64,000 nt of DNA from Mediterranea sp. (GTDB taxonomy: Bacteria; Bacteroidota; Bacteroidia; Bacteroidales; Bacteroidaceae): NCBI GenBank assembly GCA_031261785.1, contig JAISIZ010000094.1, positions 1,471-65,470 on the forward strand, written 5' to 3'. How positions within the stretch are numbered: position 1 is the stretch's first letter; each line of letters opens with the position of its first letter. The notes beneath the pieces were generated by a model. The model made no database searches. It saw only the letters and a program-made list of their open reading frames with translations, and was not told the origin of the DNA. Positions 1,121 to 20,302 of the stretch are shown in pieces. A program made the translations under genes and the position numbers.

Positions 1121-2674
1121 TTATTCCGTCTTCCATCCCGTGATGCCTCTCGTTTCTTTGTCGTAATTCACACCCACTTTCACTACTGTCCTCCCGTCGG
1201 CCTCGTAGGGGACGGCGTAGTCTTTCGCTCCGATCTGCGCCAGCGCCTCCTCGGGCGTGGAATTCACTTTCAATTCGAAGAGGTAGACATACTGCTGGTT
1301 GGTGACCACCACGTCGACACGGCCGGTGGAGGTCTTCACCTGCGTATGTGTGAGCTGCCCCATGAGCGTGAAGATGATGTAGAAGATGGTCTCGAACCTC
1401 GACTCGTTGTCGCTCTTCTTCTCGTAGGGGATGGAGGCGACGAACGCACGCAGGCGCGTCAGGCAGCCGTCGATGTCGCCCGTGTCGAGCGCTTCCTTCA
1501 TGGCGATGAGGCTCATGTCACTCTCCATCTTGCTGTAGCCCAACACGGTGGGAAGCAGCGAGCGCAGGAAACCGTAGCGTACCTCCTCGTTGGGGTAGCC
1601 CAGGGTGTAGATGCCATTCTTGAAATCCTTGATGGTAAGGTATCCACTCTGGTAGAGCACGGGGATGGGGTCGGTGAGCGTGTCGGTCGACTGGTCGAAC
1701 GCGTCGGGCATGGCCTTGCAGCCTTCCATGTCCATCAGCGGCATGTTCCGCGCGCGCAGCAGGTCGATAAGGAAGGTGGGGGTTCCGGTGGAGTACCAGT
1801 AACTACCATACTCTTTGGAGTCGAGCACGTTGATGATGCTGAACGGGTTGTAAATGTGCTCGCCGCGATGGTTGAAACGGTAGCCGTCGTACAGGCGGGC
1901 GAGGTGCGCCAAGGCCTGTTCGTAGGTCTCGTCGTTGTTCGCCGCCAGGGCTTCGATGTCTGGCTTGAAATCCCTGACCAATTCGGTTTCGGTGATGCCG
2001 CATATACTGTTGTATTGCTGCCACATACTGACGTTCTTGAGGCTGTTCAGCTCACTGAAGATGCTCATCTGGCTGAACTTGGTGATGCCGGTGATGAAGA
2101 GGAAACGGAGAAGGTGCGTGTTGTCCTTGATTGGGCTGAAGAATTCGCGGGTGATGAGGCGCAGTTCCTTGCGTAATACCTCGTCGCCGGTGGAATCGAG
2201 CAAGGGCGAATCGTACTCGTCGATGAGGACGACGACGGGCAGCCCCGTTTGCTCGTAAGCCCGTCGGATAATCCCTTTGAAGCGGGCGCCATAAGTGTCC
2301 TCCGAAGGTTTTCCGCCATAGCGTTCTTCCCAATCGAGAAGCTGGTTGTTCAGCAGCGTATGCAAGTTCTTCGCCTCATTGTAGCGCGTCTGGGCGAAGG
2401 AGATGTGCAGCACGGGATACGCCGTCCACTCCGTCTCTAATCGCTCCATGGCCAGCCCCTCGAACAGATGTTTTTTCCCCTCGAAGTAGGCTTTCAGCGT
2501 GGAGAGCAGCAGGCTCTTGCCGAAACGGCGGGGGCGGCTTAGGAAGTAGACGCGGTTGGTATTGGCCATCCGGTAGACCAGGTCGGTCTTGTCCACGTAT
2601 ACGTAGTGGTGGCTACGCAAGTCTTCAAAGCTCTGTATCCCTATGGGGAAGATGCGGGTGGGTATGTTTGCCAT
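1121..2674 (-). CDS. AAA-ATPase-like domain + C-terminal PD-(D/E)XK nuclease (copy 1, 517 aa)
   Basis: Walker A RPRRFGKS, Walker B VLIDEYD, conserved LYQSGYLTIK, nuclease GRVD...FELK...Q-x3-K-x-Y; matches the AAA-ATPase_like/PDDEXK_9 architecture. Confidence 0.9.
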   Translation of the reverse strand: MANIPTRIFPIGIQSFEDLRSHHYVYVDKTDLVYRMANTNRVYFLSRPRRFGKSLLLSTLKAYFEGKKHLFEGLAMERLETEWTAYPVLHISFAQTRYNEAKNLHTLLNNQLLDWEERYGGKPSEDTYGARFKGIIRRAYEQTGLPVVVLIDEYDSPLLDSTGDEVLRKELRLITREFFSPIKDNTHLLRFLFITGITKFSQMSIFSELNSLKNVSMWQQYNSICGITETELVRDFKPDIEALAANNDETYEQALAHLARLYDGYRFNHRGEHIYNPFSIINVLDSKEYGSYWYSTGTPTFLIDLLRARNMPLMDMEGCKAMPDAFDQSTDTLTDPIPVLYQSGYLTIKDFKNGIYTLGYPNEEVRYGFLRSLLPTVLGYSKMESDMSLIAMKEALDTGDIDGCLTRLRAFVASIPYEKKSDNESRFETIFYIIFTLMGQLTHTQVKTSTGRVDVVVTNQQYVYLFELKVNSTPEEALAQIGAKDYAVPYEADGRTVVKVGVNYDKETRGITGWKTE

Positions 2675-2725
2675 CTCTTTCTAAATTAAAAATTGAGAAT
2701 TGAGAATTAAAAAATGAATGTATCG

Positions 2726-2733
2726 CGAAGATA
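2726..2733 (-). promoter_or_regulatory. Bacteroidetes sigma-70 -7 element TATCTTCG for AAA copy 1
   Basis: TAnnTT(T/C)G variant 51 bp upstream of ATG 2674; identical element at 5552..5559. Confidence 0.6.
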
Positions 2734-2815
2734 GGGCTTTTCCGCGGATATTCCTTGGGAAATGAAGAACTAAGAATGGAGAACGGGAAGAGCATTGGGG
2801 ACTATGTATGATGAA

Positions 2816-2854
2816 CGAGAGGATACACGCTCTCGCGTGGCGTGTATCCTCTCG
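2816..2854 (-). terminator. 15-bp perfect stem-loop downstream of the DUF5043-like gene
   Basis: CGAGAGGATACACGC (2816-2830) / GCGTGTATCCTCTCG (2840-2854), 9-nt loop; weak U-tract. Confidence 0.65.
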
Positions 2855-2906
2855 AGGATATGGATGCCTCGTCTTCCAATGGAAGAAGAAGTGGTGGTAT
2901 CGAATC

Positions 2907-3611
2907 CTATGGTATCATTTCGATAGGTGTCGACTCGGATTGCGCCGGTTCATTTTCCGATGGCGTTGGCTCTTTTTGCAAGGGATTGTCCGGGTCGTCA
3001 AGCAATGGTGGCTGAGGATTGGAAGGAGCGGCGGGAGAGAATGGAGGGTCTACGCCGGGACGGGTCTCGCCGACTTTCTGTATCCAATTGAGGAATATGC
3101 AATTCAGTCTTCTTCCGTATTCCGTCGGGGTGAACCAAATATGCCTTTTCAGTTCAAGCTCTATTCTTCGGTACACGGCAGGGGGAAATTTCGCGGCGAT
3201 ACGGTCGGTAAGGAATTCAAATTCCACATCGACAACCTTGCCTGTGCTTGGATCAATATACAGGCTTGTCGACAGCTTGAGACCATTCTGTGCCTCTGGA
3301 TTCAGTGTGGAAAAGAATGCCTCATTCACGATCTCGTAGCACTTGCGCTTGCTCCAGTCCTCGAGCGCGTAGGGAAGATGCGAATTTGATATGGGCGGAT
3401 ACTTTCCTGTATCTTTTTAGACCTGGTCGACGTCGATCCATGTATGCTCCTTGTTGCAGAGCTGGCCCCATCCACCAGGTTTCAGTTTGCTTTGATATTG
3501 GCAATCGTCCAAAGTGAAAGTCTTCGGGATATCATAATAATATTGGGCGAAGGCGGTTTGTGCATAGCACATAAAAACCACCGATAAAAATAGAATCTTC
3601 GTCATGATCAA
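2907..3611 (-). pseudogene. DUF5043-like secreted protein interrupted by an in-frame TAA at 3417..3419
   Basis: ORFs 3417..3611 and 2907..3329 are in the same frame; read-through gives ...WIDVDQV*KDTGKYPP...CYEIVNEAFFSTL...TGKVVDVEFEF...WFTPTEYGRRLN. N-terminal signal peptide MTKILFLSVVFMCYAQTAFA. Family assigned from recall. Confidence 0.75.
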
Positions 3612-3953: not shown

Positions 3954-5507
3954 TCATTCCACCTTCCATCCCGTGACGCCCCGCTCCGTTTTGTCGTAGT
4001 TGACGTCGACTTTCACCACCTCTCGCCCGTCGGCCTCGTAGGGGATGGCGTAACCTTTCGCACCGATTTGCGCCAACGCCTCCTCGGGAGTGGAATCCAC
4101 TTTCAGCTCGAAGAGGTAGACGTAGTCGTTGTTGCTGACGACCACGTCGACACGGCCGGCTGAGGTCTTCACCTGCGTGCGGGTGAGCTGTCCCATGAGC
4201 GTGAAGATGATGTAGAAGATGGTCTCGAAGCGCGACTCGTTATCGCTCTTCTTCTCGTAGGGGATGGAGGCGACAAACGCGCGTAGGCGCGTCAGGCAGC
4301 CGTCCACGTCGCCTTTGTCGAGCGACTTCTTCATGGCGATGAGGCTCATGTCGCTCTCCATCTTGCTGTAGCCCAATACGGTGGGAAGCAGCGAGCGCAG
4401 GAAGCCGTAGCGCACCTCCTCGTTGGGGTAGCCCAGGGAATAGATACCATCCTCGAAGCCTTTGATGGTGAGGTATCCGCTCTGGTAGAGCACGGGGATG
4501 GGGTCGGTGAGCGTGTCGGTCGACTGGTCGAACGCGTCGGCCATGGCCTCGCAGCCTTCCATGTCCATCAGCGGCATGCCGCGCTCGCGCAGCAGGTCGA
4601 TGAGGAACGTGGGGGTTCCGGTGGAATACCAGTAGCTGCCGTATTCCTTTTTGCTCAGCACGTTGATGACGCTGAACGGGTTGTAGACGCGCTCGGCGCG
4701 GTGGTTGAAGCGGTAGCCGTCGTACAGGCGGGTGAGGTGCGCCAGGGCCTGTTCGTACGTCTCGTCGTTGTTCGCCGCCAAGGCTTCGATATCGGTTTTG
4801 AAATCGCGGGTCAATTCGCTCTCCGTGATGCCGCATATACTATTGTATTGCTGCCACATGCTGATGTTGTCCAAGCTGTTCAGCTCGCTGAATATGCTCA
4901 TCTGGCTGAACTTGGTGATGCCGGTGATGAAGAGGAAGCGAAGGATCTCGGTGTTGTCCTTGAGCGGGCTGAAGAACTCGCGGGTGATGAGGCGCAGCTC
5001 CTTACGCAACTTCTCGTCGCCGGTGGAATCGAGCAGGGGCGAATCGTATTCGTCGATGAGGATGACGACCGGCAGCCCCGTTTGCTTATAAGCCCGTTGG
5101 ATGATCGTTTCCAATCGGCCGCCGAAATTCTCTTCTTTTTCACTTTGGCCATAGATCTCTTCCCATTCGGAAAGCTGCTTATCCAAGAGCCTCTTCAGAT
5201 TGTCCGCTTCGTCGTATCGTGTGCGGGCGAAGGAGATGTGCAGCACGGGATACGCCGTCCACTCCGTCTCTAATCGCTCCATGGCCAGCCCCTCGAACAG
5301 GTGTTTTTTCCCCTCGAAATAGGCTTTCAGCGTGGAGAGCAGCAGGCTCTTGCCGAAACGGCGGGGGCGGCTTAGGAAGTAGACGCGGTTGGTATTGGCC
5401 ATCCGGTAGACCAGGTCGGTCTTGTCCACGTACACGTAGTGGTGGCTACGCAAGTCTTCAAAGCTCTGTATCCCTATGGGGAAGATGCGGGTGGGTATGT
5501 TTGCCAT
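3954..5507 (-). CDS. AAA-ATPase-like domain + PD-(D/E)XK nuclease (copy 2, 517 aa)
   Basis: Same motifs as copy 1; first 94 aa identical. Confidence 0.9.
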   Translation of the reverse strand: MANIPTRIFPIGIQSFEDLRSHHYVYVDKTDLVYRMANTNRVYFLSRPRRFGKSLLLSTLKAYFEGKKHLFEGLAMERLETEWTAYPVLHISFARTRYDEADNLKRLLDKQLSEWEEIYGQSEKEENFGGRLETIIQRAYKQTGLPVVILIDEYDSPLLDSTGDEKLRKELRLITREFFSPLKDNTEILRFLFITGITKFSQMSIFSELNSLDNISMWQQYNSICGITESELTRDFKTDIEALAANNDETYEQALAHLTRLYDGYRFNHRAERVYNPFSVINVLSKKEYGSYWYSTGTPTFLIDLLRERGMPLMDMEGCEAMADAFDQSTDTLTDPIPVLYQSGYLTIKGFEDGIYSLGYPNEEVRYGFLRSLLPTVLGYSKMESDMSLIAMKKSLDKGDVDGCLTRLRAFVASIPYEKKSDNESRFETIFYIIFTLMGQLTRTQVKTSAGRVDVVVSNNDYVYLFELKVDSTPEEALAQIGAKGYAIPYEADGREVVKVDVNYDKTERGVTGWKVE

Positions 5508-5551
5508 CTCTTTCTAAATTAAAAATTGAGAATTAAAAAATGAATGTATCG

Positions 5552-5559
5552 CGAAGATA
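5552..5559 (-). promoter_or_regulatory. -7 element TATCTTCG for AAA copy 2
   Basis: Identical context to 2726..2733. Confidence 0.6.
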
Positions 5560-5576
5560 GGGCTTTTCCGCGGATG

Positions 5577-5708
5577 TCACGCGATGTGACGCGTTGACTT
5601 GTGGGTGATGCCGAAGCCACCTTGTCCCGGCGTCTCTTGGACCGTATAGGCGAATTCTTCGCTCTGGATCGTGGTGTCCGGAGGTAGCTGCCGCTCGCGA
5701 TTGTCCAT
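5577..5708 (-). pseudogene. Truncated N-terminus (43 aa) of a second Hanks-type Ser/Thr kinase
   Basis: Hand translation: MDNRERQLPPDTTIQSEEFAYTVQETPGQGGFGITHKSTRHIA*. Contains the kinase Gly-loop GQGGFGIT. Starts 6 bp after the FHA-like gene stop and ends 1 bp from the repeat boundary. Confidence 0.75.
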
Positions 5709-5714
5709 GGGCGA

Positions 5715-6839
5715 CTATCTGTTTGCCCTGAACACGATGCGCACGTCGCGCTCGGGAGCCGGAATCACAAGCTCCGCTCCGGAGGGTAGCGAATAGTACT
5801 GCATATTGCCACCCTTGCTCAATTCGTTGACGACGATATCGCCTTTCCTCCTGTTGGAACTGATCTTGCCATACGTAGCGAATTCGAAAACCGGCAATTT
5901 TCTCCCGTTCGCGTCCGTTTTCCCCTCGTTCTCGGGCTTGTACACGATGATGAGGTAGGGATTGGTTTCCAGGGCGACATCGAGGCGCCATACCGTATTG
6001 GGAAGGTTGCGGCTGTCCGTCTTGCCGGTGATCTCGATGCGGTGTTCGCGCATCTCGAAGCGGTTGTTGCCCTCCTGGAGCACGGCCAACACGCCCGATG
6101 TGCGGGAAGGTTGGGGAGATTGGGGAGGCTGGGGAGTGGTACTCCCTTTGGGATTATCCTTAGGTTCTTTCGCCGACGAGCCCGATTGGGGAAGATAAGG
6201 GATGAAGAGCGGGGTGAACGTGCGGGCATCGTCCCACATTCCGATATCGACAAAGTTCTCTTGCGCCATGGCGACTGTTTTTCGGACATTCGTATTCGAC
6301 TCCTCGGTATCGTTCATGTCGTAGGATGGCCGCGACGGGCCGAAGGGCTTCGTCCGGATGATGGGTTTGCCCAGTGTTGGTACCTCCGTGTTCTTCTCGT
6401 CCTTGCAATGTTCGGGCGAGCGGAATTGGAAGTGCCAATACTTGACGGGGATTTTGAGTATCTTGCCGCTTTTCTTCTGTCCCTCGCTCACAAGCCGTGG
6501 CAGCTCCACGCAGAGTTCCATGGCGATGTACGGAAAGGTTTCTCTCAACCGAAGAAAATCCTCGTCGCAAAGGTCGATGAAGACGCACATGGGGAAATAC
6601 ATGATATTCTTCATCTGGTTCTCCGTGCTTATCGTTCGCTCGAAGGCTTGTTCCACCATATATGCTACGCGATGGAAGGGCAGCTCGGCTGGGACGGACT
6701 CCGCGGATTTGCCTGATACGGGGTTGCCTGTCTTCGCCTCTTTTTTTTCACTCTTCGGGTCTTTTGTGCCGCCCTCGAGGATGAGTCGATTCAATCCTTT
6801 ATTGAGCTTCTCGCCCAAATCTTTCCATATATTTGCCAT
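5715..6839 (-). CDS. Kinase-associated protein with FhaA-N/DUF3662-like N-terminus and degenerate FHA-like C-terminal beta domain (374 aa)
   Basis: N-region MYFPMCVFIDLCDEDF...KYWHFQF, Pro/Ser linker, C-region IEITGKTDSR...YLIIVY...FEFATYG...LPSGAELVI. Resembles Bacteroidota FHA proteins (recall) but lacks the canonical GR and SxxH residues; directly downstream of a kinase. Confidence 0.55.
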   Translation of the reverse strand: MANIWKDLGEKLNKGLNRLILEGGTKDPKSEKKEAKTGNPVSGKSAESVPAELPFHRVAYMVEQAFERTISTENQMKNIMYFPMCVFIDLCDEDFLRLRETFPYIAMELCVELPRLVSEGQKKSGKILKIPVKYWHFQFRSPEHCKDEKNTEVPTLGKPIIRTKPFGPSRPSYDMNDTEESNTNVRKTVAMAQENFVDIGMWDDARTFTPLFIPYLPQSGSSAKEPKDNPKGSTTPQPPQSPQPSRTSGVLAVLQEGNNRFEMREHRIEITGKTDSRNLPNTVWRLDVALETNPYLIIVYKPENEGKTDANGRKLPVFEFATYGKISSNRRKGDIVVNELSKGGNMQYYSLPSGAELVIPAPERDVRIVFRANR

Positions 6840-6886: not shown

Positions 6887-8116
<1,230 letters not shown>

Positions 8117-18886: not shown

Positions 18887-20140
18887 ATGAAAAAGAATGA
18901 ATTGTGGACCGATAAGCTGAAGCAACGGCTGAGTGAGCACACGCCGCCGCTGCCACCCGACGGATGGGAACGACTGGAGCGGGAGCTTGCGCCCACGCCC
19001 GTGATGAAGACGCGCCCCCTTCGCCAATGGGTACGGATGGCTGCCGCCGTAGCCGCGCTCGTAGCCCTCTCCACCGCCGCATATCTCTACTGGGTGCCCG
19101 ATGGAGCGACCGAGCTGGCGCAAACCGCCCTACCCGGAACCTCGCCCGACCTCCTGCCATCCCACCCCCTGCCCGATAGCTCCACCGCCGCTCCCCATAC
19201 TTTGCCGGTAGTTACCGCACGCCCTGCCCATACGGGCGAGAAACTCATCGCGCAAGCCCGAACCGAGGAGGAAAAAGCCATACCGCCCGACACTCCCGCC
19301 GACGAAGGCGAGCAAACGGCGATATCCTCTGGCACTCCCACCGGCGTAAAGAAAGACAGCGACAAAGAGAAAGACACCGACAAGGAGAAGGCCATCGGCA
19401 CCACCCAAAAGCGGACACGCCCCGCACGTCCTTCATCCAAAGACAAATATCAGCTCCCCGCGGAGAAGACTCCTAAGCGTGGAGGTGGCTGGTCGATGGG
19501 CATATCGGCCGCTGGCGTCATCGCCTCCTCAGACGGGACTATCGAACGAGGCAACGGCTATCCCTCGCGGATGAACATCGCTTCGTCTGCCGATGCCTTG
19601 GTGGAGGTTCCCAAGGGCGAACAAGTGGTGTTTAACGACGGCGTGCCCTACCTGCTCGCCGGTAATCAGATAACCGACATCAAGCACCGCCAGCCTATCT
19701 CGGTAGGCGTGTCGGTACGCAAGGCGCTACCCCGCGGCTTCTCCGTCGAGACGGGGCTGACCTACACCTTGCTTTCCTCCGACGTCACCCTGTCGGGATC
19801 CGAGCGTGCCGTCAGCCAGAAACTGCACTACATTGGCCTACCCGTCCGTGCCAACTGGAATTTCCTCGAGAAGCGACTCGTCACCCTCTACGCCAGCGGC
19901 GGCGGCATGGTGGAGAAATGCGTGTATGGCAAGCTCGGTTCCGACAAGCTTACCGTGAAGCCCCTGCAATTCTCCGTCATGGGAGGCGTGGGCGCGCAGA
20001 TCAACGCCACCAAGCGCGTCGGATTCTATGTCGAACCCGGCGTGGCCTACTACTTCGACAATGGCTCTGCCGTACGCACCATCCGCAAGGATACTCCCTT
20101 CAACTTCAACTTGCAGGCCGGACTACGATTGACGTATTAA
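18887..20140 (+). CDS. Dual-membrane-spanning anti-sigma factor (Reo/Dma1-like)
   Basis: Short cytoplasmic N-domain (WTDKLKQRL...GWERLE), TM helix, long P/T/E/K-rich linker, C-terminal beta-barrel ending LRLTY; follows the ECF sigma gene. Confidence 0.8.
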   Translation: MKKNELWTDKLKQRLSEHTPPLPPDGWERLERELAPTPVMKTRPLRQWVRMAAAVAALVALSTAAYLYWVPDGATELAQTALPGTSPDLLPSHPLPDSSTAAPHTLPVVTARPAHTGEKLIAQARTEEEKAIPPDTPADEGEQTAISSGTPTGVKKDSDKEKDTDKEKAIGTTQKRTRPARPSSKDKYQLPAEKTPKRGGGWSMGISAAGVIASSDGTIERGNGYPSRMNIASSADALVEVPKGEQVVFNDGVPYLLAGNQITDIKHRQPISVGVSVRKALPRGFSVETGLTYTLLSSDVTLSGSERAVSQKLHYIGLPVRANWNFLEKRLVTLYASGGGMVEKCVYGKLGSDKLTVKPLQFSVMGGVGAQINATKRVGFYVEPGVAYYFDNGSAVRTIRKDTPFNFNLQAGLRLTY

Positions 20141-20250
20141 AGAATTCCTGGCTTCATCACTTTTCCCCGCCATCGCATAGCGTGCATGGATAATCAATCA
20201 CTTACTGTCCGTGTCGTCGTGAGCGAATCTTCGCTGACCGGCGAAGAGCT

Positions 20251-20302
20251 TACGCGCCGCATGGAGATTTCGCAGGGGCGACAAATTTCAATCGCGGATT
20301 CG
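20251..20302 (+). repeat. Dispersed ~52-bp non-coding element, copy 1
   Basis: 45/52 identical to the reverse complement of 58904..58955, with a 24-bp perfect core CGACAAATTTCAATCGCGGATTCG. Confidence 0.9.

Follow-up and report, generated by a model that had tools for sequence, protein, structure and literature searches.

A 43-codon kinase gene remnant, probably truncated at the leader of a multicopy DUF1703 gene, in a fragmented FHA/PP2C/kinase operon of Mediterranea sp.

The 43-codon open reading frame at positions 5577-5708 (minus strand; ATG start, TGA at 5577-5579) of the window, by which is meant the whole 64,000-nucleotide stretch of Mediterranea sp. DNA analyzed here, is, with a probability that we put at about 0.85, a genuine kinase pseudogene remnant: the 5′ end of a gene for a Hanks Ser/Thr kinase of the LGQGGFGITY type, truncated at the leader of an adjoining AAA-ATPase_like/PDDEXK_9 (DUF1703) gene. 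This stub, as it is called below, retains the start codon and the glycine loop; approximately its first 40-42 codons are kinase-derived and the remaining gene is absent. Its ATG lies 6 bp past the TAG of a gene for a 374-aa protein (5715..6839, minus strand), the coordinates and the translation of the short frame being exactly those given in the first-pass annotation. The order of genes on the minus strand is kinA (8116 to 6887), the 374-aa gene (6839 to 5715), the stub (5708 to 5577) and a DUF1703 gene designated AAA copy 2 (5507 to 3954), followed by a low-GC patch with small or broken open reading frames, a second DUF1703 gene designated AAA copy 1 (2674 to 1121) and an APH-like gene. kinA (6887..8116, minus strand) is intact and encodes a 409-aa Hanks kinase with a Pfam Pkinase match at 1e-42, the VAIK, HRDLKPAN and DFG motifs and a C-terminal membrane anchor. 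Together with its 374-aa partner and the stub it makes up the entire complement of signaling genes in the window; PP2C, Pfam-recognizable FHA and SEDS-transpeptidase genes are absent from the cluster. Taken alone, the stub, a dead kinase 5′ end of the sort that annotation pipelines would skip, is of little consequence. As a marker, it would identify the kinA/374-aa pair as the remainder of a larger FHA/PP2C/kinase/SEDS-PBP operon that has been dismantled in this genome, and it places one break of that operon at one gene of an ATPase-nuclease family that has undergone enormous expansion.

A six-frame search with the stub against its own genome yields three further matches, all of them N-termini of long open reading frames with Pkinase bodies. 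These paralogs are its closest relatives (46-53% identity, E 1e-9 to 6e-7): a 505-aa protein on contig C92 (C92:32696-34213; N-terminus MENRTLQLAPGTALKGEKFAYTIQRVLGEGGFGITYLAT...; 53% identity over residues 1-40, E 1.0e-9), a 400-aa protein on C124 (C124:31300-32502; E 1.2e-7) and a protein on C27 that is cut by the contig end (C27:3-761; E 5.6e-7). The C92 paralog belongs to a Bacteroidales family with >7800 matches, whose N-termini follow the pattern M..QL..GT.LQGGK.Y.I..VLGQGGFGITYLA and whose C-termini vary (FGE-sulfatase/SUMF1, WG repeats, TonB_C, CarboxypepD_reg); the NCBI names for it include 'bifunctional serine/threonine-protein kinase/formylglycine-generating enzyme family protein'. 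From its start Met to about residue 40-42 the stub aligns in register with the N-termini of these Bacteroidales Hanks kinases, and it carries the signature QL..GT.L...Y.I...LGQGGFGITY from the start Met, with departures at five near-invariant positions. On a profile made from 106 family N-termini the stub scores 35.3 bits, against a maximum of 7.3 for 500 shuffles of its sequence; these values and the paralog matches bear out the originally proposed match to the start of the N-lobe of Bacteroidota Hanks kinases. Intact family members score 53-83 bits on the same N-terminal profile, all above the stub, which also falls below two paralogs that were outside the profile's training set (52.3 and 56.9 bits). 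By sequence comparison the stub is beyond doubt a homolog of kinase N-termini, and the most degenerate member seen. Stub-type kinases occur in only 4 of 121 genomes of the genus, none of them nearer to the stub than are the paralogs in its own genome, and no orthologous intact kinase gene was recovered among those 121 genomes.

The alignment with the 106 family N-termini specifies what has been kept and what has changed. The invariant residues L8, Y21, G28, G30-G33, I34 and T35 are retained, and with them the GxGxxG glycine-rich loop, present as GQGGFG at residues 28-33. The departures are L14I, K18E, L27P, Y36H and A38S; the five positions are 94-100% conserved among the relatives, and at each of them the stub's residue is found in 0 of 106. 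Positions 27 and 36, at which the stub has P and H, are L and Y in 104-106 of the 106. The L>P and Y>H changes that were initially read as decay are accordingly real, and they form part of a wider, five-position pattern. The case for decay under relaxed constraint rests on these departures from family conservation, 43 codons being too few for dN/dS, and they point that way, as does a profile score that is the lowest in the family. The reading of the frame as the decayed N-terminal remnant of a second Hanks kinase is upheld by family homology and by departures at conserved positions alike.

What is missing is the catalytic core. In the paralogs, VAIKE follows at about residue 57-61, and then HLDLKPANIL and DFG; the stub stops at residue 43. 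Compared with intact LGQGGFGITY-type Bacteroidales kinases, it has the first 40-42 residues in register and keeps GQGGFGIT, but it lacks the VAIK lysine, the HRD loop, the DFG motif, the C-lobe and the C-terminal domain, and its 43 codons represent ~8% of the 400-880 codons of full-length homologs. A peptide without the catalytic Lys, HRD and DFG cannot be a kinase. Pfam assigns the 43 residues to no family at E up to 1, as is expected, because only ~15 residues of the kinase domain are present.

The stub may nevertheless be transcribed, and even translated, because no terminator-like site separates it from its neighbors (a terminator scan between the 374-aa gene and AAA copy 2 found none); with its start codon retained and its place in the transcription unit of kinA and the 374-aa gene, it may give rise to a 43-residue peptide. 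That such a peptide has been retained as a functional small protein, either a glycine-loop peptide that modulates kinA or the 374-aa partner or a uORF that couples transcription or translation of the operon to AAA copy 2, strikes us as exceedingly improbable. The intact ATG, the lack of an internal stop, the tight spacing and the lack of a terminator-like site before AAA copy 2 would all suit such a role, but homologs of comparable length are not known, the substitutions sit at the most conserved positions of the parent family, and the small open reading frames found after the partner gene in two related loci (L024 and L025) encode unrelated hydrophobic peptides. Nor does an open frame of this length, 43 codons, by itself argue for function. 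If the stub is instead a kinase pseudogene remnant, as we prefer, it would have drifted after truncation and presumably has lost its function.

The kinase homology ends within 1-3 codons of 5575/5576. Alignment of the two AAA upstream regions, blastn against the genome and comparison of 17 AAA copies place the junction between kinase-derived DNA and the AAA leader at 5575..5576 (minus strand), to within ~2 bp. The DNA that is common to both AAA copies in the window begins at 5575, 2 bp below the TGA of the stub, and at least 15 other AAA copies in the genome also share sequence from that position (blastn of the upstream region). The contention that the gene was cut at the boundary of the AAA cassette is in agreement with this placement. 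The junction falls inside a longer version of the leader rather than at a canonical end of the element: the leaders of copy 1 and of copies on C48, C70 and C80 reach ~50 bp further upstream than does that of copy 2. An endpoint of deletion or illegitimate recombination therefore fits better than a clean transposon insertion.

The body of the kinase gene is not to be found nearby. On the 66-kb contig (C15) a tblastn search with E up to 50 matches only kinA and the stub, and no orphan kinase body that would complement the stub exists in the whole assembly, a 131-contig draft that is 94% complete; the only kinase fragments in the assembly are those at the contig ends of C27 and C25, and those two fit each other. 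Two simple schemes were considered and rejected. Insertion of a cassette into an otherwise intact kinase gene would leave a kinase remainder, and there is none downstream of either AAA copy. For shufflon or cassette switching, no DNA-level repeat of the stub is present elsewhere in the genome (blastn) and no recombinase is seen nearby. The junction might also be an artefact of assembly, a chimeric join made through the repeated AAA leader, with the kinase intact in the real chromosome; the draft is fragmented, its contigs often break at AAA copies, and the first ~350 bp of AAA copies 1 and 2 are nearly identical, as are their leaders. This is very unlikely. The 3′ end of the stub is unique sequence abutting a repeat, and a misjoin in a repeat alters what follows the repeat, not the entry into it; no contig carries a kinase body minus its first 42 codons; and the substitutions of the stub at invariant positions are those expected of a dead gene. 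Genuine truncation at the AAA leader remains the preferred reading of the junction.

The gene on the other side of that junction belongs to a large family. AAA copy 2 (3954..5507, minus strand) is intact, encodes 517 aa and has the DUF1703 architecture, with PF09820 at the N-terminus (5e-70) and PF08011 at the C-terminus (5e-15); AAA copy 1 (1121..2674, minus strand), also 517 aa, is 87% identical to it. The conserved 68-bp leader of copy 2 (5508..5575, minus strand) contains TATCTTCG at 5552-5559 and an AT-rich 5′ UTR. Placed side by side, 17 AAA copies share a conserved leader, ...ATCCGCGGAAAAGCCCTATCTTCGCGATACATTCATTTTTTAATTCTCAATTTTTAATTTAGAAAGAGATG, with a TAnnTTTG box. TAnnTTTG is the -7 promoter motif of Bacteroides, and we take TATCTTCG in the leader of copy 2 to be a putative -7 box of the Bacteroidetes type. 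The near-identity of their 5′ ends points to later gene conversion between copies 1 and 2. The family numbers ~65 loci in the genome, 25 of which share 70% identity or more with copy 2; many of its members are found at contig ends. On the 3′ side the copies cease to be homologous at the stop codon; on the 5′ side the length of shared sequence differs from copy to copy. The unit does not behave as a transposable element: neither shared, defined ends nor terminal repeats are seen, and there is no sign of independent mobility.

An expansion of this kind has been described in Cardinium cCpun, which has 25 DUF1703 paralogs and recombination among them (PMC6387759). The likeness lies in the presence of both domains and, here, in dozens of paralogs, many of them at contig ends, with signs of exchange; that the AAA family serves as a recombination substrate is plausible. 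The differences are three: the repeated unit in the present genome includes a conserved leader with a putative promoter, one copy abuts a broken gene, and copies adjoin all four of the stub-type kinase loci.

The 374-aa partner protein (5715..6839, minus strand) has no Pfam match and a C-terminal β domain that is weakly FHA-like. A word-based search retrieves only the protein itself, which is absent from 40 relatives; exhaustive HMMER searching identifies five distant clusters, and six 50%-identity clusters of the family are found among 1.84 billion representatives. The homologs are ~320 aa long. Those of 318-320 aa are 35-36% identical to the 374-aa protein over its full length, and their genes directly follow kinA-homolog kinases on the contigs that carry the nearest kinA homologs. 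The kinase upstream of the partner gene is of the kinA type in loci L017, L019 and L024 (57-61% identity to kinA in the first two) and never of the stub type; the more distant kinase of L027 has no match to kinA. The 374-aa "orphan" belongs, in other words, to a rare conserved family, with a kinA-type kinase before it, where that kinase could be typed, and a PP2C after it. Its original designation as FHA-like finds weak support. A structural model built from the family alignment has a pLDDT of 57.6 overall and 70-83 in the C-terminal β domain, and the top Foldseek matches of this model in the PDB are FHA domains (Rad53 FHA1, SLMAP and APLF; E 6e-3 to 8e-2, probability 0.90-0.98). Pfam finds no FHA domain in the protein. 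The modeled resemblance to FHA domains is suggestive, though not significant.

The fullest of the related loci (L017) is on a contig (JAISIN010000085) of the MAG 'Prevotellaceae bacterium' Hm464_bin62. Its order is an AAA/PDDEXK_9 gene, a kinase-FGE gene (579 aa, stub type), LytTR, FHA, a 330-aa protein, a second FHA, PP2C, the kinA homolog, the 320-aa partner, a PP2C-FtsW/RodA-transpeptidase fusion (1633 aa), a third FHA, another kinase-FGE gene (688 aa, stub type) and a PDDEXK_9 gene on the opposite strand. Both stub-type kinases of this locus are 38-43% identical to the stub. A search for related loci with a 3-sequence alignment has the L017 contig as its sole match among genome contigs and no match in metagenome contigs. 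In all six independent loci (L017/L018, L019, L023, L024, L025/L026 and L027-L029) a PP2C gene, free or fused to a SEDS-transpeptidase, comes after the partner gene, with a ~50-aa hydrophobic two-TM peptide interposed in some of them. The guess that a PP2C phosphatase has been lost from the window was a good one. An FHA gene then follows in the three loci that reach that far (L017, L018 and L025/L026), and PP2C, FHA and SEDS-transpeptidase are carried in cis with the kinase in L017, L025 and L027. A kinase gene immediately after the partner is seen in none of the six loci; the stub-type kinases of L017 stand only at the outer ends of the super-operon, adjoining AAA/PDDEXK_9 genes. The ancestral locus had been proposed to be kinase-FHA-kinase, perhaps longer. 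The six loci are indeed longer; the proposed order, with a kinase directly after the partner, is not theirs. The sequence search and the synteny comparison likewise gave different answers to the same proposal, the first returning significant matches to kinase N-termini and the second no second kinase directly at that place in related loci.

The gene content of these loci resembles that of the actinobacterial cell-wall signaling locus fhaA-fhaB-pstP-rodA-pbpA-pknA-pknB (M. tuberculosis Rv0020c-Rv0014c; PMC6554272), in that loci of the kinA/374-aa type also carry FHA, PP2C and FtsW/RodA-transpeptidase genes together with two or more Hanks kinases on a single strand. The Bacteroidales counterpart has a fused SEDS-PBP protein (in L017, L025 and C96). 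Unlike the actinobacterial locus, the window retains only kinA, the 374-aa partner and the stub, and other sets lie on C99 and C96. We know of no actinobacterial counterpart of the 374-aa partner family or of the kinases with FGE-sulfatase tails.

Parts of such an operon are found elsewhere in this genome. An intact FHA-PP2C pair at C99:2916-4621 (L020; 62% identity to the L017 PP2C) is orthologous to the FHA-PP2C that precedes the kinA homolog of L017; it stops at a tandem pair of tRNA genes on the other strand, with pfkB beyond, so that in this genome the break in the operon falls between PP2C and kinA. No PP2C remnant is present upstream of kinA. An apparently intact cluster at C96:7738-18553 (L021) consists of a kinase (429 aa, with an Lcl_C tail), PP2C, an FtsW/RodA-transpeptidase fusion (1403 aa) and FHA, with a 1022-aa BrxL-like Lon/AAA protein next; on C92 an AAA gene is followed by the stub-type kinase. 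The stub is an ordinary gene relic of this fragmented FHA/PP2C/kinase operon, and its locus would be one piece of a larger FHA/PP2C/kinase/SEDS-PBP operon with its parts scattered over C99, C15, C96 and C92. In a complete genome from the same genus (G002), 2 Mb separate the blocks that flank the region in the window on the APH side and on the HAD/men side, which makes the region a synteny breakpoint; no empty site is definable, the flanking APH and HAD/men genes not being neighbors in relatives.

The events that produced the present arrangement can be reconstructed as follows, with perhaps an even chance that this particular sequence is the correct one. A kinase/partner operon would once have ended with a full-length kinase gene of the LGQGGFGITY class, its start 6 bp beyond the 374-aa gene. 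Deletion or illegitimate recombination would then have eliminated all of the sequence from about codon 43 on; the second endpoint of the event would lie in the upstream leader of a multicopy DUF1703 gene, with the result that the 5′ end of the kinase gene became joined to the leader of AAA copy 2. Because none of the six related loci has a kinase directly after the partner, a full-length kinase at exactly the position of the stub is something that we infer. The reconstruction also has a cost: to turn an L017-type order into that of the window, the PP2C-SEDS-PBP and FHA genes would in addition have to be lost or replaced. The gene order of the related loci, in which a kinase never comes after the gene of the 374-aa family, would be accommodated without a resident kinase if a short kinase 5′ fragment, never full-length at this location, had been copied or carried in by the recombination that brought the AAA unit; stub-type kinases adjoin AAA/PDDEXK_9 genes in C92, C124, C27 and L017, and joint travel is possible. 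We consider this origin unlikely. The 5′ end of such a fragment would have to coincide exactly with a kinase start codon, 6 bp after the upstream stop, and 6 bp is normal next-gene spacing in such operons (2-10 bp in L019, L023, L024, L025 and L027). In C92 and L017, moreover, the AAA gene is upstream of the kinase and not downstream of a kinase 5′ end, and a DNA-level copy of the stub is lacking in the rest of the genome. Truncation of a resident kinase gene is for these reasons the reading that we retain.

All four stub-type kinase loci in the genome (the stub on C15, C92, C124 and C27) have a DUF1703 gene no more than 3.1 kb away; a random locus would be so placed with a probability of 0.096, and four of four with one of ~8e-5 if the loci are independent. 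On the contig of L017, from an unrelated MAG, the kinase operon is bounded at each end by a DUF1703 gene (1754-3319 and 19659-20294), and directly upstream of the AAA gene there, at 724-1313, is a decayed kinase-FGE-sulfatase remnant in which a segment of the kinase C-lobe is fused to one of FGE and no N-terminus remains: an independent case of a kinase relic beside a DUF1703 gene. These kinases may lie near DUF1703 genes because both occupy variable regions, because recombination has done damage there, or because the two are functionally coupled. A bolder proposition, that DUF1703 units are recombinogenic or mobile and settle preferentially beside LGQGGFGITY kinases and break them, or are functionally coupled to them (for example, as a phospho-regulated nuclease/defense module), is speculative and on balance doubtful. 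Were it true that DUF1703 units break kinase genes, the birth and death of kinase arrays would be driven by these units, and the stub would be a footprint of that process. A link in statistical terms between DUF1703 genes and this one class of Bacteroidales kinases merits a test over many genomes.

Other irregular genes came to light in the course of the analysis. In the low-GC (46%) patch between the two AAA copies, a DUF5043 gene (window positions 2907-3611) is apparently split or truncated: its pieces are a 64-aa open reading frame with a signal peptide (3417-3611) and a 140-aa open reading frame (2907-3329) that covers profile positions 77-156 only. The 400-aa open reading frame at C124:31300-32502 (415-1617 of locus L003) consists of a kinase N-lobe (residues 1-183) fused to FGE-sulfatase, with no kinase C-lobe, and is another rearranged member of the stub's kinase family. 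In another species of the same genus, a locus on contig C45 of genome G098 (L015; G098:C45:22000-38000) holds an array of six Hanks kinases with TonB_C, WG-repeat and FGE-sulfatase C-termini; the array is headed by a PP2C gene and is interrupted by radical SAM/SPASM and DUF3990 genes.
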